From IMG/VR virus record IMGVR_UViG_3300002092_000038: DNA of 64,000 nt. One strand, 5' to 3'. The position numbers were made by a program, and so were the translations under genes. Positions 7,152 through 39,800 of the stretch are shown here, one piece after another. The notes beneath the pieces are model-generated. The model had not been told where the DNA came from. It did no database searches and worked only from the letters and a program-made list of their open reading frames with translations. Origin of the DNA: an uncultured virus (IMG/VR IMGVR_UViG_3300002092_000038) (lineage: Duplodnaviria > Heunggongvirae > Uroviricota > Caudoviricetes). Positions within the stretch are counted from its first letter, which is position 1. Each line of letters opens with the position of its first letter.

Positions 7152-7370
7152 ATGACACAACCAAAATATCAACATGGTGACACAGTATATTTTTTAAATA
7201 ATGGTGCAATTAATAGTGGTAAAATTTATTCTGGTAGTGCTTCTTGGACTGCTTTTGAAAAAATGTATATTCATTATTATTTAATTTTGAATAACAAAAT
7301 TCATGACGAAAAACCATTTAAAGAAGAAATACTATTTGAATCAATAGAAAAATTAAAAGAAAATTTATAA
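7152..7370 (+). CDS. small SH3/KOW-like hypothetical protein
   Basis: KYQHGDTVYF pattern typical of small phage beta-barrel proteins. Confidence 0.55.
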   Translation: MTQPKYQHGDTVYFLNNGAINSGKIYSGSASWTAFEKMYIHYYLILNNKIHDEKPFKEEILFESIEKLKENL

Positions 7371-7371
7371 T

Positions 7372-8962: not shown

Positions 8963-8964
8963 TT

Positions 8965-10062: not shown

Positions 10063-10493
10063 TAGTAAAATTTAAGAAATTACATCCTGATGCAGTAATA
10101 CCACAATATGCACATCCAGGTGAAGACGCTGGATTGGATTTAACTTGTATAAATGTTTATTCAAATACTGGTTATATAGGTTATAAAACAGGAATAGCTG
10201 TAGAAATACCACAAGGTTATGTAGGATATTTATTTCCTAGAAGTAGTAATTGTAAAAAAGATCTTTTACTTACAAATTCTGTAGGAGTAGTAGATAGTGG
10301 GTATCGTGGAGAAATTGAATTCAGATTTAAACATATCCCTAATAGAAATACTTCAATTGGTGATTATTATGGTATAGGAGACAAAGTAGGACAACTAGTT
10401 ATTATGCCTTATCCTTTTATAGAACCTATAGAAGTAGAAGAATTATCAGAATCAAATCGTGGTACTAATGGATATGGATCAAGTGGAAATTAA
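10059..10493 (+). CDS. dut: trimeric dUTPase
   Basis: AGLDL, PRSS, GVVDSGYRGE, GQLV, RGTNGYGSSG. Confidence 0.95.
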   Translation: MIVKFKKLHPDAVIPQYAHPGEDAGLDLTCINVYSNTGYIGYKTGIAVEIPQGYVGYLFPRSSNCKKDLLLTNSVGVVDSGYRGEIEFRFKHIPNRNTSIGDYYGIGDKVGQLVIMPYPFIEPIEVEELSESNRGTNGYGSSGN

Positions 10494-10779
10494 TGAACAT
10501 ATATTTGATGTACCTCTAACACCAGAAGAATGTTTTAATTTAGATGTTCCTTTAGAAGAAGAGCATAGAAAAGGAAAAGATAGTAGGACTTGGGGCAAAA
10601 ATGTATTAGAAGATTCTACAAAATCTGGTGTAGGAGGTAGAATACATGAATTACTTTCAGATAAACCTACTACTAGAGAATGGAAAAAACTTCAAGATTG
10701 GAAAAAAGAACTAGAAGAACTATATGAAAAATATAATGAGCTTGTTGGTTTTGAAGCTTTTGGTAAAGATTTTGATTAA
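10459..10779 (+). CDS. hypothetical protein (true start may be a later Met)
   Basis: ORF overlapping the dut end. Confidence 0.6.
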   Translation: MVLMDMDQVEINEHIFDVPLTPEECFNLDVPLEEEHRKGKDSRTWGKNVLEDSTKSGVGGRIHELLSDKPTTREWKKLQDWKKELEELYEKYNELVGFEAFGKDFD

Positions 10780-10795
10780 TTTATAAAATAAACTA

Positions 10796-11209
10796 ATGGA
10801 ATTAGAATTTAGACAAAGTGTGTTTACACATTATTATACAAATAAACAAGGACAAAGTATTAAATTTGAACTATTGGACGATAAACATACTTGTGTAGTC
10901 TCAGATTGTCCTTCAGGAGTAATTAGAAAAGGGGAAGAAGAACAGTCAGCAATAGTAAAGAAAAACCAACCTAATAGAGAGATTAAATTAATTTTTGCAG
11001 AACCTTTAGGGGGTCCTTTTATAGCTTTAGGTTTTAATTTAGAAGATTTTTTATTAAGTAAACAAGCTTTTTTAGAATCTAAAACTAAAAAAACTATTAA
11101 TAAAATAGAAGTAATAGATAGTAAAATCTACATAACTTATGAAGAAAGTCCCATTAGAAAAGAGTCAAAAACCACTGAAAAGAACACCACTCAAGAAACA
11201 GAATCTTAA
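10796..11209 (+). CDS. hypothetical protein
   Basis: 137-aa ORF. Confidence 0.6.
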   Translation: MELEFRQSVFTHYYTNKQGQSIKFELLDDKHTCVVSDCPSGVIRKGEEEQSAIVKKNQPNREIKLIFAEPLGGPFIALGFNLEDFLLSKQAFLESKTKKTINKIEVIDSKIYITYEESPIRKESKTTEKNTTQETES

Positions 11210-11534
11210 TTCTGCTAAAATAAAACAAGAAGAAAGAGCTGTAACACGTTTAGAAGATAGTATATTTTATAATGAAATATGGACAAAAAGAAGTCAAAAA
11301 TCAGATTTAACAGGTAATTGGTTAGGTAATCAATTATTAACTTCTTATTTTCACCATCTACTACCTAAAAGTTTATATCCTCAATATAGACATAAAAAAT
11401 GGAATATACTTCTTTGTGAAGATTTCTATCATAATCAAATAGAAATAAAAGAAACAGGACTTCCAAAAGAAATATATGATAAATTTATTAATATTTTAAA
11501 TCAAGCAAAAAAGAAAGCTGGACTATTAATTTAG
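11139..11534 (+). CDS. HNH-like nuclease
   Basis: HHLLPKSLYP...NILLC...H; basic N-terminus KRTPLKK. Confidence 0.55.
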   Translation: MKKVPLEKSQKPLKRTPLKKQNLNSAKIKQEERAVTRLEDSIFYNEIWTKRSQKSDLTGNWLGNQLLTSYFHHLLPKSLYPQYRHKKWNILLCEDFYHNQIEIKETGLPKEIYDKFINILNQAKKKAGLLI

Positions 11535-19871: not shown

Positions 19872-22800
19872 TTATTTAACTTGTGGTTCAGGATTTAAAA
19901 CTGTACCAGTATTTTCTTTATACCATACAGGGAATATTACTGAACCAACATCATAAATTGCTTTACCATTAGGCAAAGTATGTATGATTTGAGGTATAAA
20001 ATGCATTTTTTCTGTATCATCCCCTGTAGCTACACCATAACCATATTTAGCTAAATGAGATATAGCAGCAGTTAATTCTCCAAATACTCCTAATACAGGT
20101 AATTTAGAACCAGAACCAAACTCAGCAAATTTTAAAGGATTAAAAAACATTTCTAATTCATCCTTACCTCTATTGATTACTCTTTTTATATAAGAAAAAT
20201 ATCCTTGAGCATTTTCCCATTCAGGATCATCTTTTTTAGGTAAAGCAGCAGACAAACCTACAGATAGACCAATAAAAGTTAATAAAGCTAATAATTCTTT
20301 ACTTTGAATTTTAATATTTTCCCTAACCATATCATAAAATTCGTCAGGTGTCATATGTAATTCTGTACCGTTTTTTCTTAAAAATTCTGCTTTATGTTCT
20401 TCATACATTCTATGTAACCCTTTTACTCCTTCATCATTAGCTTTATATAAATCTGATAAGTTTTTTATTTTTTTAATTACATTAAAAGTATTTCCTTCAG
20501 AATTAACCCAAATATTAGCTAACATTCTCATTCTACCATATTCATAAGCCTGAATACCTTGATTATAAGCTAATCCACCAAATCTTTGATCTATAGATTG
20601 TGGCAACCAGTTAGTAAATAAGAACATTTGCCTAGCTACTGCGTTAGTTCTTATATGAGATTGATCGTTTTCAGAAATATTACCAGCTAACATTCTACCT
20701 TGAGTTCTGATCATGTTTTTAAAGTCTATAACTGAAAAATCATTTAAATCTAAACCGTCTATAGATAGTTTTCCTTTATCATCTACTTTAGAATGTTTTA
20801 TTAAACCATATTTATCTACTAATTCAGAAACTGTTTTATCTAAACTTTTTTCAAAATCTTTTCTTTCTGTAGAAGAGAGTTCATACTTTTTGGAAAGTCT
20901 ATTAGCGTATTCTCTTGCATTCATTAATTTACCATTTACTATAATAGCATTTTCCATATGAGTAAGGTAATTAACATACTGCACTATATTGTGGGCAGAT
21001 TTAACCATCTTCATAGAAAAAGCTTGAAAGTCAGCATCTGCTATTTTACTACCAGCTAAATGATCTAAATCTAATTTTAAATTTTCATCAACTGGTAAAA
21101 ATTCCCTCATTAATTTAGTTGTAAGAGAAGCATCATTTCTAAAAGTAGCAAAATTAGTAAAATTTGCATAATTCTGTAAAAATTCTTTACTATTATAATA
21201 TTTACCAGAGTTAAACCAACCTGTAGTACCTGTAGTTAAACTTCTGAATATAGATGTTACAGTATTTAAACCTAATACATTATATGAAAAATAAGCTTTA
21301 AGAGTATCTAATGTTTTTCTAACATCATATTCTCTTTCTTCTCCATCTATTGTTACATGACCTCCTTTTAAGTCTAATTTAGAAAGAATACTTTTATCAT
21401 TTATATGTACTTCTAAATAATCTATTAAATGTTGTATGTTTAAGTTTACATCAGAATGACCTACTATATTTTTACGAGAATCTGTTATAAGCATTCCTTT
21501 AGATTCTTCTACTATTTTTAAAGCCTCTAAAGTACTTTCAATATCTCTTTTAGACCTATAATCTATCACAGCTTCTGCAAAAATACCAACATTTTTTATA
21601 AGATCATCTGCTACATTAGAATAATCTTTACTACCATCAGGATTTTCTCTTGATATTTCTCTTACAAAATATTTAGGTATCTTAGAAATAACTTTATTAG
21701 TAAAAGGATCTATAGCTTCTGCAGTTTCTCCTTGTTTAATAGATGTAAAACCTTTTCTAACTTGATCCCAAAGATTCCATCTTCCTCCATATTCTACTTT
21801 ATCAGCCAAAGATTTTTCTATCCAAGGTAAAAAAGTACTAATATGAGCATGATGAAACATACCAGCAGCAGCAGCTTGTTTATTTATATCAGTAACAAAA
21901 TTATAAAAATCTAAAGCAGGTTTATTTTCTGGTTTAAGCATTTCTTTATATTCTTTACTTCTTAAATCATCTTTAAGAAAGTTTTTAAGTCTACTTAAAT
22001 TAGACATAGAATATTCACTACTCCAGGTAGTTTCTGACATTACTTTTTCTATAGCATCTTGTTTTCTTTCTTCTGCTGTTTTTCCTAGATAAGGAAGCCA
22101 TTGAGAAGCATTAATTTGCTTGATTTGTTGTTCTCTAAAAGGCATAGCCCAAGCATTAAACTTTTTATCGTCTAATAATTCTCTAGTTTCTTTTGGTTTT
22201 TTATCAGCTATGGTTTTTTCTAATTTAGTATAAGTTTCTGTTGAAAATTCATTTATAAGTCTGTTAGTACCTTTATCGTTTTTATCTTTAGCTTCTACTA
22301 TTTCAGATAATTTTTTAACACCTCCCCATTCTTTAGTAACTGCTTCCCATATTGGTTTTAATTTAGCTACCATTTCATTAGTTTCAGTTTCTACTTTATT
22401 TAATCTTATATTATTAAGATCATAAGCTGCTCTAATAACTGTTGAAGGAGATTTACTAGGTGTTCTAAATTCTTTAGCTAAATAATCTAATAAAACTTGT
22501 GGTTTTAATATATCCCAAATAGATCTACTATCAGCCCAAGATTTCATATATTGATTCAACAAAGTTTTAGCACCTATCCTACTATCATTATCTGATAGCA
22601 AATAAGCTGCATTTCTAGATAAACTACCTAAATCTTCTCTTTGCTTTTTTCCTTCTTCTGTACTATCATCTATAAAATCTCTGAGTTTTCCTAAAGAACT
22701 ATATAATTCAAGAGACTTGATTATATCTATTAATGGTTCTAATTTTTCATCTAATTCTGAAATATTTTTAATATCTTTAAAAGGAAAATTTTGATAATCT

Positions 22801-25295
22801 TCCCTTATTTTTTTCATATTATCAATAGTTTGTCTATTGAATCCTTTAACTTGTTCTAAGAAAGGTCTAAAATCTTGTGCTAATTGTAAATGTAAAATAG
22901 CTTTTTCTAAGTTTTCTATTTTATTTTTTCTAACGATAATATCTTTTTCATTAGAGCCTTTAGCAGCAGTTAAATTTAAAGTGTGTGTTAAAGCTGTAAT
23001 AAGAGTTTGTATAGGAGTAGATTTATTCTGCTCAGAAGATGTTACATAAGGTAACAAATAAGGAGTTTTTTCATTTTTATAATCTGTTGTACCTATATTT
23101 AAAGCTAAAACTTCTCCTTCATGACCTTTTTCTTCATTATATTTTACAGATACAGGAATCATTCTTACTTTCTCTATATCATTTAAACTAACACCGTATG
23201 TAGGAGAAGTTAATATTTTTACATAACCAGCCATTTGTTTATCATAGGCTTTTTTCATGTAATCTCTTACTCCACCATGTTTAGCTAAAGAACCTATAAA
23301 TTTCCAGTCAAATACACTAACTTTTCCTATAGGAGTGATAGCCATAAAGTCTATTGTTCCTGCTAATCCTTTAGTAGACTTTTTACCTTCTGTATCATAT
23401 ACTTTTAATGTTGGATCATAAACAGTTTTTTCCCACATAAATTTAGTACCTTCAGGAAAATCTACTTTATTAGTTATCATTCCTTCATGATGAATTCCTC
23501 CTTCATCTGTATAACCATACAAATAACCTTCTAAAACTTTATAATTAGCTTTATCTTCATCAGAATGTTCTGCAAAATAAGTAGAATCAAAATCTATAGG
23601 TATAGTGTTTTCTCTTAATAAGCCTGTAAGAGGGTCAATATGTCTTTCATGCATATTTTCCATATCTTTATGCCTAGCAGTACCATATTGTTTCTTAAAC
23701 TCATTAAGAACAGTATCCAGATTTTCTTTAAGTTCTTTATTTTTAAACAAATCAGTTAAAAAATTCTTTACTAAATCTGTTACCCTGGCTATTTTGTTAC
23801 CAGCACCATCTTCATAGTGATTACTTCCATTAGTTTCTTCTTTTTTCTCTACTATAGGTGGTTTAGATAATTTATCAAACAATTCTTCTTGTTTTTTTTC
23901 TTCTTCTGTTTTTTGTTTAAAAATATCTTTAAAACCTAATTCGTCTCTGATAATAGAAGCTGTACTTTTAGTTCTTGTAGTATCTGTAGATATTACATTA
24001 GTAACACCTAATTCTTTAAGTTCTTGTGCAGCTTTTTTAGCATCTTCTATACCTTTTTCATTTATAGGAGTAGTTACTTCATTATCTACTTTGGTAATAT
24101 TATTGTCTGTTTGACCATGCCTTACAAAATATAAAGTCTTACCATTTACTTCTTTAGTATAAACTTCACCATTTTTAGTATTTTTAGTTTTACCATCCAA
24201 ACCTTTTAATAAACCTATAACAGTCCCGTGAGTAATAATAGCTGTTTTGTCTGGTACATTAGCTGCAATATTCTGTATCTCAGTAAGAGTACGTGATTTA
24301 AAATCTTCATAACTTTCATCTTTTTTTCTATCAGTTAAATCTTTAATAGGATTTTCTTTATCTAATTCGCCTTTAGTAAATTTTTTAGCTGTTTTTTCTA
24401 AAGGATCAAAAGTAGGATCAAAACCAATTTTAGTTAATAGATTTTTAATCATTTCTTTTACTTTATCAAACCAAGTATTAGCTTTAGCTAATAATTCTGG
24501 TTTTTCAGTTTTTCCTTCTAATCTTTTAATAACTAACTCATTAAAAATTTTACCAGCAGTTTCTTCTTTAAGTTTTGGTATATTAGGTTTACCATCTATC
24601 ATATAGTCAGGATCATTTTTATACTGATCTATTACACTAGCGTAAAGTTCGTATTTTCCAACATTATTCATAATTTCTTTAAATAATGCTGGTTCTGATT
24701 CTTTAACCATTCTAATAATACCATGACCTACTTCTTCACCTGTTACTATATCTTCTTTTCCTTTGGCAATACTTATAATTTTACCAAATAAATCTATAGT
24801 ACCATTTGTACCTATTTTATCACCATTAATATCAGTAAGTTCTTCTAAAGATTTCCAATCATATCCTGCTCTTTGCGCCCATTCTTTATATTTACTTTGT
24901 GTTTCTAGTGATGCTTTTGAAGGGGTAGTTTTTCCTGTAGAATCTTCTAACTGTTTTAAAACATCTTCTTTAGGAGAAAATATTGCTTTAGTTACATCCT
25001 TAATATCATATTCTCCCTTGTCGTTTTTGGGTAAACCTAATTTAGTAAAATTAGGAGAAGTAGTTTGAGCATAAACAGCTAAAGCTAAGTGTTTATTATT
25101 ATCTAAATCACCTACAATACCACTAGATTCCCAGGATTTATATTTATCCTGAAGTTTTTCTTTTTGTTCTTTTGGCAAGTCTTTAACTAAGTCTAATATA
25201 TCTCCATAAAGTTTACTTTCTTCTCCTTTAGGAGTAAGTACTTTAGAAATCATTTTACCATTAGTTTTAACTAAACCACAATTTACTCCAAACAT
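19872..25295 (-). CDS. large virion cargo protein with degenerate zincin, permuted histidine phosphatase and PD-(D/E)xK domains
   Basis: EEVGH; THG...RHG...R; AGTIDFM...DWK...YDKQ; lies downstream of the RNAP as in crAss-like cargo loci. Confidence 0.75.
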   Translation of the reverse strand: MFGVNCGLVKTNGKMISKVLTPKGEESKLYGDILDLVKDLPKEQKEKLQDKYKSWESSGIVGDLDNNKHLALAVYAQTTSPNFTKLGLPKNDKGEYDIKDVTKAIFSPKEDVLKQLEDSTGKTTPSKASLETQSKYKEWAQRAGYDWKSLEELTDINGDKIGTNGTIDLFGKIISIAKGKEDIVTGEEVGHGIIRMVKESEPALFKEIMNNVGKYELYASVIDQYKNDPDYMIDGKPNIPKLKEETAGKIFNELVIKRLEGKTEKPELLAKANTWFDKVKEMIKNLLTKIGFDPTFDPLEKTAKKFTKGELDKENPIKDLTDRKKDESYEDFKSRTLTEIQNIAANVPDKTAIITHGTVIGLLKGLDGKTKNTKNGEVYTKEVNGKTLYFVRHGQTDNNITKVDNEVTTPINEKGIEDAKKAAQELKELGVTNVISTDTTRTKSTASIIRDELGFKDIFKQKTEEEKKQEELFDKLSKPPIVEKKEETNGSNHYEDGAGNKIARVTDLVKNFLTDLFKNKELKENLDTVLNEFKKQYGTARHKDMENMHERHIDPLTGLLRENTIPIDFDSTYFAEHSDEDKANYKVLEGYLYGYTDEGGIHHEGMITNKVDFPEGTKFMWEKTVYDPTLKVYDTEGKKSTKGLAGTIDFMAITPIGKVSVFDWKFIGSLAKHGGVRDYMKKAYDKQMAGYVKILTSPTYGVSLNDIEKVRMIPVSVKYNEEKGHEGEVLALNIGTTDYKNEKTPYLLPYVTSSEQNKSTPIQTLITALTHTLNLTAAKGSNEKDIIVRKNKIENLEKAILHLQLAQDFRPFLEQVKGFNRQTIDNMKKIREDYQNFPFKDIKNISELDEKLEPLIDIIKSLELYSSLGKLRDFIDDSTEEGKKQREDLGSLSRNAAYLLSDNDSRIGAKTLLNQYMKSWADSRSIWDILKPQVLLDYLAKEFRTPSKSPSTVIRAAYDLNNIRLNKVETETNEMVAKLKPIWEAVTKEWGGVKKLSEIVEAKDKNDKGTNRLINEFSTETYTKLEKTIADKKPKETRELLDDKKFNAWAMPFREQQIKQINASQWLPYLGKTAEERKQDAIEKVMSETTWSSEYSMSNLSRLKNFLKDDLRSKEYKEMLKPENKPALDFYNFVTDINKQAAAAGMFHHAHISTFLPWIEKSLADKVEYGGRWNLWDQVRKGFTSIKQGETAEAIDPFTNKVISKIPKYFVREISRENPDGSKDYSNVADDLIKNVGIFAEAVIDYRSKRDIESTLEALKIVEESKGMLITDSRKNIVGHSDVNLNIQHLIDYLEVHINDKSILSKLDLKGGHVTIDGEEREYDVRKTLDTLKAYFSYNVLGLNTVTSIFRSLTTGTTGWFNSGKYYNSKEFLQNYANFTNFATFRNDASLTTKLMREFLPVDENLKLDLDHLAGSKIADADFQAFSMKMVKSAHNIVQYVNYLTHMENAIIVNGKLMNAREYANRLSKKYELSSTERKDFEKSLDKTVSELVDKYGLIKHSKVDDKGKLSIDGLDLNDFSVIDFKNMIRTQGRMLAGNISENDQSHIRTNAVARQMFLFTNWLPQSIDQRFGGLAYNQGIQAYEYGRMRMLANIWVNSEGNTFNVIKKIKNLSDLYKANDEGVKGLHRMYEEHKAEFLRKNGTELHMTPDEFYDMVRENIKIQSKELLALLTFIGLSVGLSAALPKKDDPEWENAQGYFSYIKRVINRGKDELEMFFNPLKFAEFGSGSKLPVLGVFGELTAAISHLAKYGYGVATGDDTEKMHFIPQIIHTLPNGKAIYDVGSVIFPVWYKENTGTVLNPEPQVK

Positions 25296-25296
25296 A

Positions 25297-25617
25297 TTAA
25301 TAAGCTTTTAATTTTAAACGTGTAAGATGTAAAATATTTTCATCTTTATTTATACCTTGTAAAGTTATATGATTAGGCATAAACCTCATTAACATTCTTT
25401 CAGGTTCATTAAACAAATGAGGAGCAGTTTCTAAAAAGAAATCTACACCATCATGTATAATAGTATACTGATGTATTATTGGATTTTTATCTTTACCAAA
25501 AATTTGTAAAGTTCCTTGAGGTATAAACTTAAAAAGAAGACCTGGAAACTCTGTACAAACCCAATCATGCATAGATATTTCTCTTTTTAGTTGTGTTAAT
25601 CCTTCTATTTTAACCAT
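25297..25617 (-). CDS. hypothetical beta-rich protein
   Basis: 106-aa ORF overlapping the ATP-grasp gene. Confidence 0.55.
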   Translation of the reverse strand: MVKIEGLTQLKREISMHDWVCTEFPGLLFKFIPQGTLQIFGKDKNPIIHQYTIIHDGVDFFLETAPHLFNEPERMLMRFMPNHITLQGINKDENILHLTRLKLKAY

Positions 25618-26887
25618 TATCTTTCATCATTTTACAAAAGGCTTCATAAGCATCATCTAGATCTTTCATATCTATTTTAATACCATAACCTTTAATTTCT
25701 GGTATTATTTTTTCCATTTGTTTTTTACAATCTTCATATGAATCTCCACAAACACAAACAGATCCTATTTCAGGAAAATGATTAATATTAATTACACTAT
25801 ACTTTCCATCTACTTTGCAAGGATATGAAAGTTTTACATTGTCTCTATATTCTTTAGGAAAGTATATAGGCTGATTAGCCTCATCATTATCTGTAGATAT
25901 AGTTAAGTATAACCCACATTTTGCATTTGGTGTTATATCTACTATTTCTCCATTAGCTATATTCCAAATAATTTCTCCTAAATTTTTATACATTATAGAA
26001 TATAAAGGTGAAGGAGGCATAGGTAGTCTAGCTGTAAAATCAGTAAGATAATTTTTGTTTGATGTTGTTCTTACTTCAGTTGAAAAAAAACCTTTATAAC
26101 TATATTTCTTTAGAATAGGAGAAATTTGATTTGTAGTTTTTTGTATGCCTTTTGATAACTTAGTATAAGGCATTATTTCACCATAATAAGCTTTATCTTT
26201 TACTTCTGTTCCTGCTAATGTGTTTTTAGGATATTGACCATCCACAGTATAACAATCTATACCTTCTTCTACAATAGCTTCTATAGGATCAAAAATTAGA
26301 AATTCTATAGTTTCTTTTATAGAACCTAATTCAAATTCCATTTTTTCTAAAATAGGCATAGAAAGTTCATAATTTTCATGATGAAAAGTTTCTACTAGTT
26401 TTCTATATTTAGAAATTTTGATCCATTTATCTTTAACTCCTTTAAGATGTTCTCTTAATTTAGTAGTTCCTATTACTTTAACAATTTGAGTAGGAACATC
26501 CATTCCTTGCTCTTTAAACTCCTGCATAGCTAACCACCTGTCTAACTCTATTATCTGCCCAGCACCACTACCACAAACAGGATAACCTAGCTCTCTAAGA
26601 TGTTCCATTAAAGAGCCTTGATAGCAATCTGTAAAAAATACTAAATCAGCTTCTTTTAAAGCCTCATAAAAATCTTCTACTTGTTTAAAATTTTTACCAT
26701 CAAAAGTTTCTAGTTGTTCACCATTAACCCATTCAGAACCTATTCTTGCTTTATCTGGTTTAGGAAAACCAGCATAATCCCAAGGACAATAATATAAAAC
26801 TTGTTTATACTCATTAGTAAGAGCTAAACAAATTTCAAAAAAGCTTCCAGAATCAAAGCACAGTATAGTTTTATTTTTTAAATTCAT
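25610..26887 (-). CDS. PurD-like ATP-grasp ligase
   Basis: ADLVFF, GYPVCG, ELDR...GMDVPT, WIK, YKGFFSTE, DFTARLP. Confidence 0.7.
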   Translation of the reverse strand: MNLKNKTILCFDSGSFFEICLALTNEYKQVLYYCPWDYAGFPKPDKARIGSEWVNGEQLETFDGKNFKQVEDFYEALKEADLVFFTDCYQGSLMEHLRELGYPVCGSGAGQIIELDRWLAMQEFKEQGMDVPTQIVKVIGTTKLREHLKGVKDKWIKISKYRKLVETFHHENYELSMPILEKMEFELGSIKETIEFLIFDPIEAIVEEGIDCYTVDGQYPKNTLAGTEVKDKAYYGEIMPYTKLSKGIQKTTNQISPILKKYSYKGFFSTEVRTTSNKNYLTDFTARLPMPPSPLYSIMYKNLGEIIWNIANGEIVDITPNAKCGLYLTISTDNDEANQPIYFPKEYRDNVKLSYPCKVDGKYSVININHFPEIGSVCVCGDSYEDCKKQMEKIIPEIKGYGIKIDMKDLDDAYEAFCKMMKDNG

Positions 26888-27789
26888 ATTTTTAAATCAT
26901 TTTCATATTTTTTCCAATCTAATCCTAATTCTTTACAAAGTTGCCTTTCAATAGACTCGGCAAAAACATGTTCTTTATGATAACAAGCATCTAATTCATT
27001 TCCTGGTTCTATTTCAAGTTTATAGTTACCATCTTTAAATTTTCTATTCCATTCTATATCAAAATCTGATATATCTTGTTCTTTTATTCCTCTTTTTTTG
27101 CAAAGATACCACTCTATTATCTCATGAACAAATATTAGATTTACATATTCTTGTTTTTCTTGTTCTGTTATAAATACTACCAATAAACCATCTTCTGTTT
27201 CTTGATAATTTCCACAAGTAGGATATTCTTGAAATTCAGATCTAATTATCCTACCCATAATAAACATGCTTCCTAAATTTTCTGAAGCAGGAAATCTATT
27301 ACCTTTAGTCCAGCAATTATCATTCTCTTTATGGCATTTTTTACATAATGTAACTCCGTTCATTCTAAGCCAAGCCGTTCTTCTGCTTTCTGATATAGGA
27401 ATTATATGATGAACTTGTAAATTTTCTATAGAACCACATATTTTACATTTGTGGTGATCTCTTTCAAGACAATGATTTCTCCATTTTGTATACTCTCCAT
27501 AATTTGATAGTCTATAATTATGATATTCTTCTGTTTTACCCCCTTTCCAGTTTCCATTTTTTTCTTTAGAGACCTCTTTAGGAAGATTATTAGTGTATAA
27601 AGCTAGGGCTTCTTCTGGATTTTCTTCTTGCCATTTTTTTAAACCTTTTAACATTTCTGTAACATCTCTTGGTTTTCCTTTTCTATATTCTACACTACAA
27701 TTTTTAGAGCAAAAAGTAGATAGGGGTTTTTGAGATAGGTATTCTTTATTACATTGAGTACAATTATGTGGATATTTTAATTTTCCCAT
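26884..27789 (-). CDS. HNH endonuclease fused to a C-terminal zincin-like domain
   Basis: CxxC...FCSxxC, NWKGG, CKICG...HHI...NGVTLCKKCH; then HEIIE...EPG...EH. Confidence 0.7.
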   Translation of the reverse strand: MGKLKYPHNCTQCNKEYLSQKPLSTFCSKNCSVEYRKGKPRDVTEMLKGLKKWQEENPEEALALYTNNLPKEVSKEKNGNWKGGKTEEYHNYRLSNYGEYTKWRNHCLERDHHKCKICGSIENLQVHHIIPISESRRTAWLRMNGVTLCKKCHKENDNCWTKGNRFPASENLGSMFIMGRIIRSEFQEYPTCGNYQETEDGLLVVFITEQEKQEYVNLIFVHEIIEWYLCKKRGIKEQDISDFDIEWNRKFKDGNYKLEIEPGNELDACYHKEHVFAESIERQLCKELGLDWKKYENDLKI

Positions 27790-27833: not shown

Positions 27834-30800
27834 TTAAAAAGGACATTGTTCAGGTTCATCACCTTTTTCTAAAGAACTAGGTTCATCAAACATTTCTTTT
27901 GTTATTAAACCATCATCTACTGCTTTAGCCATAGCATCATAAAAATCTGATGGTTCTTCAGAATTTCCTAATTCTTCAGGTTCTGAAGTCTGAGTATCTT
28001 CCTCTTCTTCTGTAATTGTTTCTTTTGTTTCTTTGTTTAAATCTTCTATATTTACAATATGAGATCCTTTTTGATCTTTTTTATATTTTTCTAAGAATTC
28101 TTCATCGGATAATTCATTGACTTTTATATTCTTATCTAGTACAGAAGGTCTAGCATCAGTATAGAATTCTCCCATATTTCTACCATCTCCCCAAAGATTA
28201 ATAGATTTATACAAATATTTATAAATAGGATTTTCTATTGAACCTATATTAATTATTACTTTTTGTCCGTTATTATCTAATACTTGTTGATACCCTTCAT
28301 TTTGATAAAGATTTTCTTTAAAGTCTTGATTATTATTTCTCATATCAGCTAATTCTTGTTCATTAGCTTCTCTTACTTTATTAGTTTCTTTATCTAATAC
28401 ATCTACTGGTCTTTTAATTTTTACTACAGGAGAGTGTTCGTACATTCTACCTGATTTTGCTACTACAGGCAAATGTACAACATTTTCACCAGATTCTAAT
28501 TTAAATTTATCAGTTTTATATCTTTTTGGTACTAACCTATCATCATTATAATTAGTTCTCCACAATACTTTTAACTTATCATAAACATTTAATAAAGGAT
28601 TATTATCAGCTATTGCCTGTAAAGCCTGATTTGTATAATTCTCATAATCTTGATAAGGAATCAAAGAACTTATAGAATTTCTATTAGAACCTGTACCAGA
28701 CTGAATTAAATTAGCTTTAAGTAAGTCTTCATAAAAATCTCTATATTGAGGATGATCTTTTAATTCTTCTAAAGCTGTTGTGAAATCATCTGCTTCATTA
28801 GAACCATTAGGCTTACTATCAAAACCAACCATTCTAGGGTTTTTAGGATTTGAAATCATAGCTGTTAATTTTCTAAAAGCAGAGTTTTTTATAATATCAG
28901 GTTCTTGTGGAATTTCAGTTCCTTCTTTTTTAGCTTTTCTTACTTCTTTATTATACTGTTTTTCTAATTTTTCTAAAGTATTTTTTACATCTTCTAACCT
29001 ATTTGCCATAGATTTATCTCCTAACATAAGTCTAGAAATTTCTTCATTAAGAGGTTTACCATTTTTATCTTTTGCAAAAATTTGAGTAGCAAAGTTCATA
29101 AAATTAGTCTTAACATTATTAAGCATTCTGGTTTTTTCATCTACACCGCCTTTGATAATAAGGTCAGAAATAAATTCCATAGCACTTCTTGTTTGTCTCT
29201 CTACTACAGGAGCAGATAATTTAAATAAAGCAGAAGAAATGTTAGTAGAAAGATCAGAAACAGTATTTTTAAGAGTACCAAACCAACTTTTATCAAAATT
29301 ATCTTGTAAACCTATAAAATTATCATTTTTACCAGCTCTATCATAAACTCTATTTTTCAAATAAGTATTATTATAAGTAGCTTTTCTAACATTACCCCAA
29401 TAACTACCACTCTGTTGTTCAAACATTTCACTAGCTAAAGAATCATATTTTAAAAATTCTTCTAAGATTGCTCTTTGCATTGCTCTCTTAGATTCTGACA
29501 TTTTTTTAACACTACCATAATCTTTATTATAAGAAGCTAAAATATCTTTTAAACCAGTACCTTTTTCGTTAGTTAATTCTAACTGATCTATACTTACTTC
29601 GTCTCCTCCTTTATAATTATTTATAATTCTATTTTTAAGAACAGATAGCTTAACTTTTTTATCTGCACCTTTACCATCTTCTGATTTACTATTATTTTTC
29701 TTTTTTTCTCTTACATAATCTTGAATAATAGGCTGTTTTAAGAAAAAGAAAGTATGCATAGGATCTACACCTGACCTTATTAAAAATAAAGCTTGTGAAA
29801 ACACATCTATAGAAGGAAGTAATTTCATCAATATAGGATTATTCACAGCATCCACTGTTGTATTCACTAATTGTGAAAGTATTTCTGATATAGGTTGTTT
29901 AACTTTATTAATAGTCCCTGCTAAACTAGTAGCAAATACTCCTTTTTCTACTTCTATTTTTTGATGTGGTAATTTAATTTGAATTTTAGGATTAAGATAG
30001 AAAGGGAAACTTTGCATCATAGCATGAGAAGTAACAGCATTTGCTGATACAGATGTTGCATTTTTAGCTTCTAATACTTCTTGTCTTTTTTGGTTAACCC
30101 ATTGCATATTCAAGAAATCAGTGTAATTTATATCACCTTTTTCTCTTTTAGCGTCTGCTTTTGGATCAATTTTGTCCATTTCTGCCTCTACTTCTTCAAG
30201 AAATTCTGTACTATTAGGAGTAAGTAATTTTTCCAAATTACTTTCATGTATAATACTTTCAGCAAGAAGCTCAAAATATTTATTATCTATAGCTTCTCTA
30301 GCATTTACTAAATAAGGATCTTTTCCTTTGTTATTTTTTATGAATTCATTTATACTTTCTATTTCTGTTTGAGAATCTTTCATTATTTTTTTAAGATCAT
30401 CAAACTCTACTTTAGTTACATCTTCAATATTTTTACCTAATTCTATAAAAGCTTCTTTAGTAAGATCCTCTAACTGAGTATCTTCCATAGCTTTATGTTG
30501 TTCCCATATTTTTTCAAGAACTTCTTCTGAATTAGTATCTTCAAAAAATTCTACTCTTTTTGGTAATCCTGTTTCTTTATCTATATAAAAATTCTTAAGA
30601 TAAGTATTTAATTTATCCACGTCAAAGTCAGAACCTACTTTAGTAGTAATTTCACTAGGTACGACAACAACTCCTCCTAAAGAATCATCTGTAAAACCTA
30701 CTATTTTTAATACATCAAAAGAGTTCAAACCTTGAGAAGGAATTCTGAATCCTACACCTTCAAGAAGTTTTCTACCTGCATCACTATTAAGATATTTAAG

Positions 30801-33800
30801 TAATTCTTCATCTGAAGCTATTTCTTTATTATTTTTAGTAGCCCATTTATACATCTTTTCTTTAAAGTGATTATTCACTTTAATTTCCATACCTAAAATT
30901 TCTCCATTTTCTCCTTCTCTATAAAATTTAAGTTCATTAGATGTAAGTTGTATTCTTTGTCCTGCTGCTTTAGCTGCATCAAATTTTTCTTTAGTATCTA
31001 AAGTAGTCCAAGTACCATCTTCATTTTTAGCTACAGCATTTCTGCCATTCTTTTCCCATAATTCTCCTGAAATTAATATTTTTGGACCACCATTTATTTT
31101 TGGCCTAATAACATGTTTCTCTATTAAAGAATTGATTATATACTCTAAACTTTGTCTATTTGCTAATTGGTCTATATTGATTACATCTTTACCATTTTCA
31201 TCCTTAGTTATTCTTATAGCATCTTTTAAGTTAGCTGGTAAATTATAGAGATTAGTCATTTGTTTCAAAAACTTTAAAAGTTTTTCTGGATTAGAAACTT
31301 CATACTTACCATTTTTATTAGATACACCAAGTTTTTTATATATAATAGGTTCTCCTTGTTTAATCATACCTTTTAAACAATTATTCATATCACTATGAAT
31401 TCTATAAAGGTCTGAATCACTTCTTTTTTGTTCTTCAGAAAGATTATCCCATTCTGCTTTTTGTTGAAAGAAGTTTTTAGAAGAATCATACCAATCTCCA
31501 GGCAAACCTGCATTCATCATATCTACAGTAGCTTGTACTCTTAACTGAGTACCTATTGTACCTTCATCATGCTGTCCTGCAGTTTCTACTATTTTATTAT
31601 AGTTTTCTAAAGGTTGTTCATAGGTTTGTTTTTGAACTTCTTCAGGAGAAAGATCATGTAAAGCTAATTTACCTACAGAATCATAATTTGAGTCTATATG
31701 ATATAAATTTTTAGCTTTATTTATTCTACCAAATTTTTGTTGTGATTTTGGCCCTATATAATCAATACCATTTTTCTGCATAAAGAAATAAAGTTCTTCT
31801 AATGGTGTATTTTCTATAGCTTCATTACCAAACAACTCCATAGTAGAAGTTTTAAGACCATTAGGCACATTAAAATCTTCATTACCAGAAAATCCTGCTC
31901 CTAAATACTTTTTAACATTAAATAATGCAGCATATTCAGGATTATTATCTATTTTTTTAGATAACTCATTTACTATCTGTTCATCTGCATGTTTTAATTC
32001 TTTACCGTGAACATCTTCTGAATATATCCTTTCTCTACCTAAGATTCTTGCTAAATCAGGATTTTTTTCTTTATCTTTTAATCTTTCTTCAAGTCTTAAT
32101 CTTTCTTGTGCTTTTTTAAGTTGAAACAGTTCTTCATGTTTAGTAGTCCAAGTACCTGCTTTAATAGCAAATTCTCTAGCTGCATCTATAGTAGCATGTG
32201 ACTGAGCATCTATAGGATTATTCTTATCTTCGTATTGTTTAGCTGCTTTATTTCCTATATGTTTTTTAATAAATTCTATTGATTTAGAAACTACTGTAGT
32301 TTTCTTATCAGTATCACCATAATCATAAGTCATACCTTTCATATTATGAGAAGCTTTCCTATAACCATAATCACCTTCTTCTAATTCTACTTCAGTATCT
32401 CCTGTTTTAGCTTTATTAAATTCTTTATTGAAATGTAAATTAAACTCATCAGAATGGAAATTCCTTTCTGTACCTGAGTTATACATTTTAGCTCTTTTTA
32501 AGAAGTCTTTATAATTAGCAGGATCACCATAAAAAAGTTTAGATAATTCTATATTATGAATTTGATAATTAGAATTAGCAAAAGACAAAATTTCTTTTAA
32601 TTCTGCATCAGTATAGAAATAATCTTCTACTTCGTTTATTTTTCTTCTAGATTGTCCCCATTCTTTTAAAAAGTCTGTATTAAGACCTTTAAACTTAGAA
32701 TAAACATCATTAACTCTTACTATAGCACTTTCTCTATGTAAAGTAGCTAAATGATCTTCTACCATTTTATTTAAAAACTTTTCTACTTCTATATTAAACT
32801 TACCTTCTACAGTTTTAAAGAATTCTTCATAACTTAAAGAAGCTAAAGAACCCTTACCATTAGCATAATCAGTAACTAGTTTAACAAGATCTGGATTTTT
32901 ACCAAATACATCTTTGAAATATCTTAATTGTTCTCCTCTAGGAGAGCCATTAACTACTTTAGCCAGTTCTTCATAATCTGCTCTGTTTTTAGATTGATTA
33001 GGATTTTTAAAATCCTTAATCATATTAATTTCATCTTCTAAATATCCTTTAAATATACCTTGATATTTTTTAATACCAGAATCTTTAAAAGCAGAAACAG
33101 GAATATAATGTTCTATTTCCATACCAAAGTCACTACTTTGATCGGCTGGAGCTGCCATTTGAAATATACCTTTACCACCATTTTCTTTTCTACCAAAAAG
33201 AAGACCGTTTAATGTATATAACATTCTTTGAGATCCTGTCATTTCTGACAATAGTACCCTATTATTATTTTCATCAACTATACCATTATCCAGTATCATT
33301 GATATTTTTTTAGGTTTACCTTCTTTATCAAAAAATTGATTTCCTTCTTTTAGTAATAAAGAATTTTTTACACCTACATCATTTTTTAATCTAGGGTTTT
33401 TATTTAAGAAATCTTCTAAATTCAAAGCTTTTCTTACAGAGCCTAATAATCTAGCATAAAAGTTTTGATTAATGTTAGTTTGAACAAATTCTTTATCCAA
33501 TCTTTGATACTGTGAAGCATATTTATCTATAGTCATATTAGCTACTATTTCTGCTAATTTTCTTATAGATGTACCTGCACCAAAAATATCTTTACCTAAA
33601 ATAGGATATTGATTTTTTTGAGCATTTAAAACATTACTATAAATAGTCTTAACTAATTCTGAAAATCCTTTAGTTAAATCTGATTTAGGATTAGAATTTA
33701 CATAATCCTCATACCTTTCCTGATCTAAACCAGTAAAGCCTATTTCTTCAAGAAATTCAAACCTTTTTTTAGTAGTAGTTGGTTCAGTGAATTTAGCACC

Positions 33801-36800
33801 TGGAGCAACAGTAAATGTTTTAGTTTGTGGATTATAATATGCTGCCTTTTTAGATTTAAAATTAGTTTCCCAATTATTTTGTAAATGTGTTACTAAACCA
33901 TCTGAATTAGCAGAAGTAGTGAAATTATTACCTGCTTCATCCCTTCTTTGCATTATACTTTCTGGAGCATATTTAGAAAAAGTTTTGAAAAACTTAGTTA
34001 ATAAATCCCAGTGTTGAGGTGTTCTATTAGCTGCTTCAACTCCAAATAAATACTTGTAAGTAGGCACTAAAGAAGGTACTCTAGTAGCCAAATCTTTCAT
34101 AGCATCATCCATTTCTTGAAGTGTACCACAATAAGATAAAGCACTCATATTTTGATAAAACAAACTATTATCTTCTACTACAGTATTGAATAACATAGCA
34201 TTATAATCATACTGAGGATCTTCTAAATTTTTATTATTAGAAGGAACACTGTCTGTAATACATTTAAATATAGTATTAAATAAAAATTGTATTTCTTTAG
34301 GAGAAGTAGCTTTAGCGTCTATTTTAAGTGTTTCTCCTCCCCAAACTTGTTTATTAGTATTTTTAGTAACTTCATCTGTACTAGCTGTTTCTGGTACAGA
34401 AGAAACATTATCTCCTACTTCTTCTTCAGTATTTTGTAAATCTAACCATTCATTTCCTGGTACAATTTTCAAACCTAAAGTAGCAAGTTTTTCTTTTATT
34501 TTATTTTCAACCAAATAATCCCATTTTTCATCATCTAACTGATAATAAGGACCATATTCGTCTTCATATTGTTTAACTAATGGTTGCATAGTTTTTGCGA
34601 AACCATCTAATTGTCCTTGACTAAATTTTTCATCAGGATACATCAACTGTTCGTTAATATCTTCTTTAATATTATTAAGAAGTTTTTTAACATCAATTTT
34701 ACCATCAGTAATAGCTGCTAAACCTCCATTATCAATACCTAAGTATTTATGAATTTTTCCTATAACACCTTCAAATAAAGCTCTACCAGTTTGAGTAGTA
34801 ATAGATGTACCATCTTTAAATTGGATCATATCTCTTACAGGTGCAAATTTTCTATCAAAAAATTTAGCATCTTTAAAATATCCTGCATTTATTTTATTAA
34901 ATAAATCTTTTTGTGTTACAGTAGTACCTAAACCAAAGAAATCTTTAATAAATTTCTTTAATTTCATAAAGAAACTCATTTTAACAGGTTCTTCAAAGAC
35001 CTTACCAGTTATATTATGTTCCCTGAATTCATCGGCAAGTTGTTCCATTATTTCCAAATCTGTATGAAGATCTGAATATTTCTTAGTTTCACCAAACCTA
35101 TTAGTATATTCTCCTTTTTTATTCTTAAACTCATTAAGTATAGCTCTTTGTTCTTTAGGAGAAAGATAACTATCAAATACAGCATGGAAAGCTTCATGGA
35201 ATCCAGTACCTTCTATTGCTCCTAAACCTAATGATATAGTTTTATAAGCATCATTATATTGTCCCCAAGAATATCCACCTGCACTATTCCTAAGCATATA
35301 AGGAAGATCACTTACTAAAAATCCAGGCAATACTTTTTCCATCCAATCTTTAAAAGCCTGGACATTTTCAAGTTTAGCTCCTTTTTCAAGTTCACTAATA
35401 GACATATTTTTAATAACATTGTCTCTATCACCTGAAGGTCTTTTATTTTGCCTTTTTCTCATAGCAGAAGCTACTGCTTCAGCATTTTCATTAGCCTGAA
35501 CAGGATTTTCAGAAGGTTTAATTTCTTCTATTTTTGTCTCTGGTTGTTGTTCAAGTGCTTTTAGCTCGGCATCATATCTGTTATAGATAGTGTCCCAACT
35601 AGTACTCCCCCAACCATCTCCAGGTCTACGTCCTTCTAACTCTTGATCTCTTCTTTGTCTTATCTCTTCTCTCTTAGCTTCTATATCTGTAACAGGTACT
35701 TTAATCTCTTCTTTAGGAACTTCTTTAACTGGTTCTACTGTTTGTTTATCTAATTCAGCTTGTATATTCTTAGTAAGAAAGTTTTTAATAGTAGCAGCCA
35801 TAGTATTCCAATTCTCTTCAGGTTTTGGATCGTATGTACCACCAATACTTTCTACTACTTCTTTAGATAATTCACCAGCCAGGGTATTATTAAGTTGTAA
35901 AATATCAATAACAGGCTTATTATCTACTATTTCAACAGTGTAATGTATATCTCCTGCTCCTTGTATTTTACTTATTAAAACATTTTCTGTTTTACCGTCT
36001 GTTACAAGATCATCAGTAGTTTTATCTCCTATAGGAAAAGTAACTTTGATAGAAGAAGGACTTTCAACAGAGGTTTTATCTGTATTTGTTGATTCTGTTT
36101 TAGTAGCATTTATAGGTTCATATTTCTTAGGTTCATGGTTTGGTTTATCTAAAACTTCTTTAGATACCTGACCATTACCTGTAGTAATATAAACACCTGA
36201 TAAATTAGGTTTACCATTAACAGACTCATCACTATTAACAGTTAAAGGTACTTCTGTATTATCTCTACCTTCTGAAGAAGTAAGATATTCAGTGTAATTA
36301 CTCCATTCTTTTGTGATAGGTAGATTTTTATCATCAAACCCAGTTACTTCATAATAAGTTAAATTAGCATCACCTCTTTTAGCTTTTAAAAGTTCTTGAG
36401 AAAGTACTACATGGTGTAAACCTTCAATAAAAGCTGTTATTTTTTCTTTATTAGCTTCTAAAGCATCAGGAGTAAAAGGAATTCTTTCTTTATTACCTAA
36501 CATTAAATATGGTAAATTAGTTCTTCTATTTACTAAAATAGAAACTTGATTATCATACCTATTTTTTGGAAAACCTTCACTATCTACAGTATACTCAATT
36601 GTTTTAGCATTAGGATCTTTTGCTTCTGGTCTATTATTAAAAAATATAACAGAAGAAAGGAATTTCTGAACATTATATTTTTTACTTTTTCTAACTGCAT
36701 CAGGATCTTCTTTACCACTTTCTACATCAGCAAGAGCTGAAGTACTAGCTAACCATTCTAAACATTTGTATATAACACTTACATTTTTAGGTGTAAATCT

Positions 36801-39800
36801 TTTACTATCCAAAACTTGTACAGAAGAACCTCTAACCCAAAAAGGTATACCAGTAGGAACCATTACTTCTTTATCTCCTATGAAAATACCTTTACCTCCT
36901 AAAGTACTTATTTGTACCATAGGATAAGCTAAATTGTTATTATCAACTAGACCAGTTTTAGATAATGGCGTAGTTCTTTTTTTACCTCCTACAGGTTTAT
37001 CAATAAAACCATTAGATATTTCAAATACATGTTCTATAGGATTTTCAGCAGTACTATTAAATATTAATTTATTTTCTTCATGAAACTGTTTTGTATATTT
37101 ATCTACATCTTCAGCAGAAGTATCTTGAAAACTGTTAGTACCATCTTCCCATTTTAAATCACTAGGTCTAGCAGTATAAATCATACTGCTATAATCTTCT
37201 TCAGTATGTTCTGTTCCTACTTCTTTAAGCTTTTTACCATTATTATCAATAGTCCATTTCTTATTATCCTTATCAGTATGAACCAATATCATATAAACAG
37301 GATCGGGATAATTTGAATTGGTTTTTCTTTTTTCAGCAGCATTAGTTAAATCAGCTTCAGTTATAAAGCCTTTTAAACCTAATTTTTCTTGATTTCCTGA
37401 ATGAATAAATAAAACAGTAGGCTGCTGATAATTTCCATTTTTATACTTAAGATCTGTATTTTTCCAAAAATTAATTTTAGAAGTATCAGAAATTTTAGAT
37501 AAAAAAGTATTAGCTCTTTCTGCCCATCTATTTCTTGATTCTAACCATGTTTTTAAGCTAGGATACTTTGATATTAAAAACTGAGTATCAAGCACTATTG
37601 AAGACCTAATAGCTCTGTTAATAGGTTTTTTTGCGCCTTTTTGTCCACTAGGTTTGCCTGTAGCTTTTTGGATAGCTTCGTTAGCTTTAGATTGAGCAGT
37701 TTCTTTAACAGTGTCAGGAGCATCTACTTCATATGAAGCTTTTCCAGGTTCCCAATAAGAGTTTTTATCTACTAGATCAAGTTCTTTTTCAATATTTTCA
37801 GCTTTAGCTTTTAATATTTCTTCTACTTTCCTATTATCTTCTTCTTTATCTCCATTTTTAAAGAAATCTTTATCTTCTTCTGACCAAGAAGAACCGTCCA
37901 TTTTTGTTACTTTACCATTGGCAAATTCTTCTACATTAATATCTTCTTCTTTGTTGTCTTGTGTTACAAATTTTAATTTATTATCTGTAGGAGAGTATTC
38001 TAGTATACCTGTTTCAGTATTTGCTTTTTGTAATTCTTCTAGTTTTTTATCATAAAGGTCTCTATATTCTTTTCTAAGATCTTCTAATTGTTTTTGTCTT
38101 TTATCTTCTAATTTAGATTTTTCAAAATCTAAATCAATATTGTTTCCTTGTGCTAATTGTTCTTTTTTCTTTTTTAAACCTTCATTATAATCGTTATCTA
38201 TAGCATTAGAAGCTTTAGCAAAAGCTATTCTAGCTTTATTATCTAGTCTATTTTTTAAATCAGGAATACTGATATTAAGTTCTTTTTTAAGATCTTCTAA
38301 TCTTTTCTGTTCAGCATCATAATATTTATGTATTCTAAAATGTTCATCTTCTAAGCTATTTTTAGCTTCTAACATTTTTTTTCTAATATCTTCTATATCA
38401 GTATCTTTTTGTTTAGAAGATGGTTGTGACTGAAGTTTCTTCCAATCTTCTTCTAACTTAGCATAAGAATCCTTGTGAGCTTCTTCTGATGAATTTATGG
38501 CCCATTCTCTTTCTTCTTCTAAAGAAGCTTGTTTAGTTTCAATTACTTCTGTTTTAGTTTCTTTAGTCTTATCTTTAGATTCTCTAACAACTCTTTTAAA
38601 CTTGTTTCTATCATAAAATTTAGCTCTTTTAGTCATACTTTTAGTCTGACCTATATCATGTTTTTTAAGAAAATCTTTTTCTACAGGAAGTATATCTCCT
38701 TTCTCAGTTTTAATTAAGAGTTTACCAGCATCTTCTCCTTCTTTAATTTCTCTGATGATTTTAAATTTTCTAAAACCTATTTCTTGACCATTACTTATAG
38801 CTTTAATAGGAGAACCAGAATAATATTCTTCTCCTAATTCTATATCTTTAGCTCCTGTTTTAGTTTCTATTCCCCCAATTCTAGGATTTAATGTGTTTTT
38901 TAAAGCATAATCATAATCCTCACCATAATTTTCTGTATAAGGATTAATCATAGAAAATTTTCTATCAGTATTATACTTTTTAGGATTATTAGTTATATCA
39001 TGATATTCTTTAAGGTAATCTCTTCTAGAACTATTTAATCTAACAAGATCATTAACTTTATTTCTTAATTCTTCTTTTTGAGTATCATCTATTAATAAAC
39101 CATCTATTTTAGCAATAATACCATCATAGATTTCATGGGCTTTTATTTTCTTTTCCCCTTCTTCATTTCTAACTACAGTATTTCTACTTTCAGCAGTTAA
39201 TAACCTAGTTATATCTGTAGTAGGATTATAGGTAGAAAAACCACCATTGTCTTTATTTACAGCAGTATTTAAAAAACTATCTTGAAGTCTTTTATCTCCT
39301 CTTAATTCCTCAGCTAAAGTCTTAACTCTTTCTGTAGCATTATCAGTCATTTGAGAAAGATACAATAGTTTTTCTATATGAGAATCTGAAAAACCATTAG
39401 TTTTACCATATCTCATAGAAACTGCTTTGTAATTTTTTTCCATTTTATCTGCCATATCTTCCATATGGTCCAGATATTTTGTTAACTGGGCTTTAGCTTC
39501 TTCAGGTTTACCTTCTATATTAAATTCTTTTTGTAAAGTAGCAACTCCTTCAGGAGTAGACAATTGATCTCTGTAAGTTTTCAATTCTTTAGTTACCAAG
39601 TTTCTCATACCAAATTTAACTCTAGGAAACAAATAATTAATTAATCTTTGTTCTCTAATGTTATACTTACTAAAATCATCTTGATTAGCTATAACTGTTT
39701 GTTCATCAGTATTAAGAGATTTATCTCTTATAATACTGTTCATATTCTCATTAAGAAAAGTTTTTGCTGTTACATCATTAAATTTAGAAATAGCGTTCTT

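Follow-up and report, generated by a model that had tools for sequence, protein, structure and literature searches.

The histidine phosphatase superfamily and the concept of polyvalent phage proteins are both already known. According to the excerpts of PMC12051542 used here, the sheet of canonical histidine phosphatases is built of six strands, of which one runs antiparallel, and SixA represents the minimal core of the superfamily. The same excerpts give the conserved pocket of a solved family member as R8, H9, R58, H149 and N15, with a Glu as the likely proton donor, and state that proton donors differ between histidine phosphatase families. Polyvalent proteins were proposed to be injected together with the DNA, and a cassette-like variability was described for them (excerpts of Iyer et al., 2017, PMC5512222). 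In crAss001, mass spectrometry found the cargo proteins gp45 and gp46 in virions together with the RNA polymerase proteins gp47/49/50, and a transmembrane helix was predicted for gp45 (excerpts of PMC10172136). In this study, we analyzed a stretch of 64,000 nucleotides from an uncultured virus of the Caudoviricetes (IMG/VR record IMGVR_UViG_3300002092_000038), which is referred to as the window and is phage DNA with 28.9% G+C. On its minus strand (19872-25295) lies an open reading frame (ORF) of 1807 amino acids (aa), whose product carries a circularly permuted variant of the Pfam domain His_Phos_1 (PF00300).

This domain resembles the members of PF00300 branch 1 (dPGM, PhoE, CobC, fructose-2,6-bisphosphatase) in its RHG motif, pocket Asn, second Arg, second His and GES..R helix. 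It differs from them in that its halves are reversed and that it lacks strand 3, the Glu loop, the cap and the last strand. SixA (PDB 1UJC) has the canonical order and six strands, whereas the window domain is built of four strands in about 136 residues; the NCBIfam model sixA gives 19.5 bits on the window against a cut-off of 74.5, and a likeness in substrate is unsupported. The carrier protein shares with the polyvalent proteins, as excerpted from PMC5512222, its very large size, its phage late context and its unrelated catalytic modules. Several domains are found in the window protein, namely the permuted His_Phos domain and a PD-(D/E)xK-like region. Orthologues hold the defining ART-PolyVal and Kinase-PolyVal domains, and other permuted members hold ddrB-ParB and GNAT. 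Like the crAss001 cargo, the protein is large and encoded beside an RNA polymerase gene, here as read from the genes alone. A difference is that no similar sequence was found for it in 50,697 phage records.

Sequence and predicted fold of the permuted domain

The permuted domain covers aa 319-454 (23934-24341, minus strand) and consists of two pieces. Piece A (aa 319-382; 24150-24341, minus strand) corresponds to the canonical C-terminal part and contains the ES..R helix, strand 4 with His356-Gly, a helix and the antiparallel strand 5. Piece B (aa 383-454; 23934-24149, minus strand) corresponds to the canonical N-terminal part and contains strand 1 with Arg392-His393-Gly, Asn399, helix 1, strand 2, Arg441 and helix 2. 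An earlier note on this DNA had quoted six strings in reversed order from positions 23950-24320 (aa 326-449), and all six were recovered in one minus-strand frame of the 1807-aa ORF: ESYEDFKSR (aa 327-335), AIITHGTVI (aa 352-360), KNGEVY (aa 374-379), LYFVRHGQT (aa 388-396), PINEKGIEDAKKAAQEL (aa 410-426) and VISTDTTRTKSTA (aa 434-446). A plus-strand reading of the same positions was rejected because stops occur throughout the frame.

With a gathering cut-off of 21.7 bits, His_Phos_1 matched aa 300-470 in two stretches (72.2 bits, E 5.9e-20) and the whole 1807-aa protein with 65.1 bits. Scanned alone, aa 386-470 matched profile positions 1-69 (55.7 bits, E 6.7e-15; matched residues 388-456), and aa 300-385 matched positions 112-154 of 194 (20.3 bits, E 4.7e-4; matched residues 322-363). 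A recognition of each half by His_Phos_1, as the earlier note had proposed to check, was thus obtained for piece B and was missed by piece A, which stays just under the cut-off. The same crossed pairing was seen with PhoE (1h2e) in a phmmer search of PDB sequences, where aa 386-451 paired with chain residues 2-68 and aa 324-364 with residues 117-158, the latter pairing being weak by itself (i-E, independent E-value, 66). Profile positions ~70-111 and 155-194 found no match anywhere in the 1807-aa protein, neither with the Pfam halves nor with our own profile. Therefore, the segment with strand 3, proton donor and cap as well as the C-terminal strand are considered absent, in agreement with the missing cap that had been claimed before. 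A continuation of the domain past aa 459 (profile 86-148) was rejected as a low-complexity Lys/Glu alignment. A Lys/Glu-rich linker follows the domain (aa 457-503; 23787-23927, minus strand), recognized by this low-complexity profile alignment and by a reduced predicted local distance difference test score (pLDDT).

Our own profile, canHP, was built from 76 matches of 170-235 aa to the query itself. In the native window sequence it gave two matches (115-185 for piece A, 41.6 bits; 11-85, 94.5 bits), and when the two pieces were swapped back in script these merged into a single match to positions 12-185 with 136.9 bits. Swapping the pieces gave one continuous canHP match in all eight of the eight permuted proteins tested. 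A re-permuted sequence, another check that had been suggested, therefore yields one continuous match, with canHP and not with the profile of Pfam. A second copy of either half elsewhere in the 1807-aa protein was not found in an own-profile search with --max. From these profile matches, the reversed order of the His_Phos_1 pieces exceeds chance, and aa 319-454 is filed as a permuted variant of PF00300 and not as a typical member.

For aa 250-480, an AlphaFold2 model was obtained with a 19-sequence alignment (A1). Its mean pLDDT was 82.4, with 93-98 over aa 319-454 (model residues 70-205), and the 70 residues upstream of the domain were helical and of low confidence. The window model has four strands, of which the antiparallel one is hairpinned to the RHG strand. 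In chain order, a helix (329-346), the strand AIITH (351-355), a helix and a strand (378-383) are followed by a two-residue turn and the RHG strand (386-392), after which come a helix, a strand (433-437) and a further helix. DSSP assigned H80-97, E102-106, H108-117 and E129-134 to piece A (model numbering), and strands E129-134 and E137-143 form the hairpin that runs into RHG. Piece B superposes on residues 3-75 of 6s2q_A with a root-mean-square deviation (rmsd) of 1.5 A over 72 residues, and also on residues 1-72 of SixA (1ujc_A). For a fuller permuted relative, the model reached a pLDDT of 94.7, and here the first part could be aligned to the C-terminal 60% of histidine phosphatases with solved structures. 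In the superposition onto the canonical fold, the halves are covered across two models, namely by piece B of the window and piece A of the relative. All structure aligners used were sequential, so that a permutant can match only partly. Foldseek found no match in the PDB at E <= 1e-3 with the window model or with that of the fuller relative. Against BFVD no match reached E <= 1e-3 either, the best being a Yasminevirus histidine phosphatase family protein (E 4.5e-3, rmsd 14.6). The minimal circularly permuted histidine phosphatase of the earlier note is thus supported by the reversed Pfam halves and by a single confident domain in AlphaFold2; of its structural check, the compact fold was obtained and the PDB match was not.

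In the SCOP strand order 324156, strand 5 is antiparallel and adjoins strand 1. If the antiparallel strand adjoins strand 1, joining its end to strand 1 would be the sterically simplest closure of the old termini, and the hairpin seen in the predicted model would be this closure. Probably, the canonical terminal antiparallel strand beside strand 1 was joined by the two-residue turn directly to the RHG strand 1, and the middle of the old domain provided the new termini. The resulting four-stranded core follows the chain order strand 4, strand 5, strand 1, strand 2. It keeps all residues of the phosphate pocket and has lost strands 3 and 6 as well as the cap and the loop that bears the Glu proton donor.

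The family of permuted domains

When aa 300-470 were compared by phmmer with 1.84 billion representative proteins, 1581 matches reached E <= 1e-3, and the best 150 of these 1581 were examined. The permuted order was present in 28 of the 150. Together with the window's own record and three further orthologues from a search with the whole protein, this makes 32 permuted domains, in parent proteins of 176 to 3006 aa. A FastTree phylogeny was calculated from profile-aligned, computationally re-ordered domains (32 permuted and 122 canonical). All 32 permuted domains formed one clade without any of the 122 canonical ones (Shimodaira-Hasegawa-like support 0.848), and the window's own group of 11 permuted domains had a support of 1.0. 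A junction motif is common to the permuted clade. As judged from this tree and from the shared order, the permutation is a trait of a family of at least 32 domains and not a local oddity. Outside the window's group, the majority of members are more complete, as their first piece starts at profile position ~80 and includes strand 3 and an 'L.E..G' loop. By this comparison, the window version therefore derives from an older permuted lineage and has been trimmed further.

The two pieces might also be the leftovers of two decayed tandem copies without one intrachain site, being either junk or partners of an intersubunit pairing in a domain-swapped oligomer. Tandem canonical two-domain proteins do exist among the matches (P0009, P0012, P0014, P0029, P0043, P0072, P0103 and P0121), and permutations usually arise by duplication with subsequent truncation. 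However, the pieces meet in a tight and conserved hairpin, and a single domain is modelled with high confidence for the segment, as for the fuller relative. Moreover, the arrangement and the pocket residues persist in 32 domains, down to ~22% identity, and no second copy of either half was found in the 1807-aa protein with our own profile. We therefore regard such a decayed pair as very improbable, and a true permutant of branch 1 as the reading to prefer.

The permuted domain occurs fused to ddrB-ParB (P0015), GNAT (P0035), PDDEXK_1 (P0090) and Kinase-PolyVal (P0122). In P0122 (680 aa), the permuted phosphatase (52-236) is joined directly to the kinase (305-449), so that kinase and phosphatase would be deployed together. 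P0015 (2755 aa) is, in addition, similar to DarB-like and DdrB proteins of P1/P7-type phages. The N-terminus of P0015 (aa 28-150) is 44.7% identical to a hypothetical protein of Leptolyngbya phage Lbo-JY46 (81372-81740), whose gene adjoins the Lbo-JY46 homologue of a 1611-aa structural protein of the window; this likeness hints at an N-terminal module common to related phages. One orthologue (P0003) has a Ser/Asn/Asp-rich insertion of ~75 residues (aa ~400-475) directly after RHG..N, within piece B. In P0013, P0109 and P0117 (1324-2647 aa), a histidine phosphatase of canonical order has profile positions ~93-117 (the cap) deleted. Thus, cap-less versions appear to have arisen in both topologies. 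In viral_contigs, no relatives were found with the permuted domain or with P0001, and P0058 gave only two short Listeria phage matches among the 50,697 phage records. The sequences in alignment A1 (described above) and in a further alignment (A2) diverge too far for pattern searches. NCBIfam gave only sub-threshold partial matches to the domain, with no equivalog (CobC, GpmB, SixA and others) near its cut-off, and PADLOC gave no match to it.

The phosphate pocket and its predicted activity

The pocket set is complete in the window domain and consists of Arg392, His393, Asn399, Arg441 and His356 (RHG = 392-394). The four phosphate-pocket residues named in the earlier note, two Arg and two His, are thus present, together with the pocket Asn. 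Arg392 and His393, the latter being the predicted nucleophile, are encoded at 24117-24122, and Arg441, the second pocket Arg, at 23973-23975 (both minus strand). The second pocket His, His356 of the 'THG' motif (24228-24230, minus strand), aligns to profile positions 112-154 and to the HG region of PhoE. The structural residues Glu327 and Arg335 are also kept. Alignment A1 spans sequences that are 22-63% identical to the window, and all 19 of them keep R392, H393, N399, G415, R441 and T445. In the His356 column, 25 of 27 aligned permuted domains have His, the others being P0022 with Ser and P0052 with Asn. The pocket exceptions in the permuted family are P0045 (YHG), P0108 (PHG), P0022 (TSS) and P0052 (TNS).

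With this pocket, the domain is most likely a phosphomonoesterase that would act via a phospho-His393 intermediate, with the phosphate held by Arg392, Arg441, His356 and Asn399. As it has neither a cap nor the canonical acid, its active site would be open, as in the cap-less SixA. An open site would be best suited to a bulky or macromolecular phospho-substrate or to a good leaving group. We infer from this that phospho-His or phospho-Asp of proteins, or the terminal phosphate of a nucleic acid or nucleotide, are candidate substrates.

It is conceivable that the permuted fold does not catalyze at all, or only very slowly, and as a pseudo-phosphatase binds a phospho-ligand, by which it would anchor the carrier to a phosphorylated host molecule or to DNA/RNA ends. 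The missing Glu proton donor, strand 3 and cap, together with the Thr found at the Glu position in fuller relatives, would fit such a binder, as would the loss of pocket residues in the few members listed above. However, the window and all 19 sequences of A1 share the nucleophile His, the two Arg and the Asn without exception, which is the pattern expected of a working site. In addition, since donors vary between the families of the superfamily (excerpts of PMC12051542), a missing acidic donor leaves room for catalysis. Therefore, we consider a mere binder unlikely and favor an active phosphomonoesterase.

Carrier protein, cassette slot and genome context

A search with the whole 1807-aa protein gave 40 homologues, in which the C-terminal body (~72% of the length) is conserved and the N-terminal part is variable. 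Pfam assigned PF00300 to six of them, Kinase-PolyVal to two (P0153 and P0155), PDDEXK_1 to one (P0186) and no family to 31; ART-PolyVal is present in two (P0152 and P0156), in both together with the phosphatase. Among the 38 proteins that were new in this search, canHP found the permuted pair in four and no match in 34. Compared by blastp with the kinase-bearing orthologue P0153, aa 1-312 of the window protein correspond to residues 3-305 (45% identity) and aa 457-1804 to residues 544-1879 (46%). The sole stretch that is not collinear is aa 313-456 (23928-24359, minus strand), which holds the phosphatase here. In P0153 this slot contains Kinase-PolyVal at 364-535, P0155 likewise has Kinase-PolyVal in it, and in P0157 it is empty. 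As read from these alignments, the phosphatase domain is a swappable cassette (phosphatase, kinase or empty) in a collinear scaffold protein. Because the slot contents vary between Kinase-PolyVal and nothing, and some homologues add ART-PolyVal, the carrier is by its domain content a modular, 'polyvalent'-type protein. The scaffold would carry one of several effector cassettes, namely a phosphatase, Kinase-PolyVal, ART-PolyVal or an empty slot.

Downstream of the linker, a PD-(D/E)xK-nuclease-like region (aa 504-717; 23145-23786, minus strand) with the motifs TIDFMAI and VFDWKF is 30% identical to residues 796-984 of P0090, in which Pfam places PDDEXK_1 at 823-1009. On the window protein itself, Pfam gave no PDDEXK_1 match. 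An Atlas search with aa 480-1807 found clusters of hypothetical proteins, one with 43% PDDEXK_1 members and one with 23% ART-PolyVal. A single hydrophobic, transmembrane-like segment is present at aa 1668-1685 (20241-20294, minus strand), the only one above 1.5 on the Kyte-Doolittle scale with a 19-residue window. A GEExxH motif lies at aa 186-191 (24723-24740, minus strand) and is conserved in most orthologues, and nothing in Pfam or NCBIfam matches this region. In two remote homologues (P0187 and P0188), a genuine HExxH occurs within the first 700 residues and may correspond to it. The GEExxH motif is possibly part of a degenerate zincin peptidase module.

Replication genes occupy the plus strand of the window (205-11534), and virion, tail and lysis genes form a long minus-strand block. 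Relatives of the 1611-aa structural protein occur in Leptolyngbya phage Lbo-JY46, Flavobacterium FpV4 and the Cellulophaga phages phi4:1 and phi17:2. The virion RNA polymerase on which the earlier note had relied would correspond to a neighboring 4517-aa protein (27834-41387, minus strand), which by tblastn (70 phage records) is homologous to crAss-type proteins annotated as 'putative RNA polymerase' (cr4_1, E 8e-33; PhiCrAssBcn, 24.8% identity, E 8e-14). The matching part is its C-terminal 2918 aa, with 22-25% identity to the crAss-type proteins, and no Pfam family matches the 4517-aa protein at E <= 0.01. It contains the motifs HEAFH (HExxH-type, aa 2064; 35184-35198) and DFDVD (aa 3587; 30615-30629), and judged by its motifs and matches it may be a zincin-like peptidase fused to a virion RNA polymerase. 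A metagenome locus (L002) encodes a 69%-identical orthologue of the carrier (1927 aa) and keeps the order giant ORF, small ORF, 424 aa, 110 aa, orthologue. The 424- and 110-aa ORFs correspond to ORFs of 425 aa (25610-26887, minus strand) and 106 aa (25297-25617, minus strand) between the RNA polymerase and 1807-aa genes of the window. Neither of these has a PHROG, and the 425-aa protein matches Colicin/Pyocin DNase only below threshold (20.6 vs 27 bits). Between the RNA polymerase and 425-aa genes lies an ORF of 301 aa (26884-27789, minus strand) for an HNH endonuclease, which matches 14 PHROG families and looks like a mobile insertion; L002 has a 186-aa ORF at this position.

Since the scaffold gene lies in the late/structural block beside the homologue of a virion RNA polymerase, its product is most likely packaged and, by analogy with known cargo proteins, would be delivered at the start of infection and alter the phosphorylation state of the host. 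We infer packaging and ejection together with the RNA polymerase from the gene position and from the likeness to polyvalent and cargo proteins, and a cargo role of the 1807-aa protein is only an analogy. Alternatively, an active phosphatase might reside in a protein that is not packaged and that acts late in the producing cell, or as a membrane-anchored factor of assembly or lysis. The gene could simply be part of a long late operon, and no homology of the protein to the crAss001 cargo proteins or to any of the phage records searched was found. However, orthologues carry Pfam 'PolyVal' cassettes in the scaffold, and elsewhere in the permuted family there are fusions to ddrB-ParB and matches to DarB-like proteins of the packaged anti-restriction set of P1. 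The position beside a virion-type RNA polymerase is conserved, and a large protein with one transmembrane-like segment resembles ejection proteins, by analogy with the excerpts of PMC10172136. Thus, a role confined to the producing cell seems rather unlikely, although it is to be taken somewhat more seriously than a mere binder, and we favor early delivery.

Taken together, we consider it fairly probable that the domain is a true branch-1 permutant with phosphomonoesterase activity and an interchangeable cassette, in a scaffold that is packaged and delivered early. Several points weigh against this account. Piece A alone stays just below the Pfam cut-off (20.3 vs 21.7 bits), canHP was derived from the query's own matches and two of its 76 training sequences were permuted (P0073 and P0086), and the tree represents the best 150 of 1581 matches plus 38 orthologues, not the whole superfamily. 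The geometry of the rebuilt pocket, in which His356 would reach the RHG motif, is putative. The canonical Glu proton donor (PhoE, dPGM; loop after strand 3) was not found in the window protein, and fuller permuted relatives show Thr where it aligns; the domain could therefore be slow or only a binder. Finally, the 1807-aa protein had no match by tblastn in the 50,697 phage records and no relative in viral_contigs, its body has no PHROG, and no NCBIfam equivalog reaches its cut-off on it.

It is tempting to speculate that the permuted, cap-less phosphatase is an injected counter-defence effector, which would erase a phospho-mark or phospho-nucleotide signal of the host within seconds after the DNA enters, with the kinase and phosphatase cassettes, which replace each other in one slot and are joined in P0122, as alternative weapons against the same phospho-switch. 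We consider this unlikely. If true, it would reveal a new, diversifying class of virion-delivered phospho-signalling effectors on a previously unrecognized superfamily topology.

In the literature searched, with most subscription journals outside it, no account of a circularly permuted histidine phosphatase or phosphoglycerate mutase was found, and among the papers listed nothing relevant by title linked a histidine phosphatase with crAss phages. The words 'phosphatase', 'phosphoglycerate mutase' and 'permut' are absent from the main text of PMC5512222, and a histidine phosphatase module therefore appears to lie outside the domains described in that main text. No description appears to exist of the permuted topology, of its minimal form with four strands or of the kinase/phosphatase cassette polymorphism. 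As standard tools see two partial matches and Foldseek misses the domain, it is likely under-annotated in giant phage proteins. In summary, the histidine phosphatase superfamily gains a circularly permuted lineage with a member that, at ~136 residues and four strands, would be the fold's smallest version, and a phosphatase module is added to the repertoire of polyvalent and cargo proteins. The polymorphism of kinase, phosphatase and empty slot at one site provides a handle on which host phosphorylation event matters early in infection.

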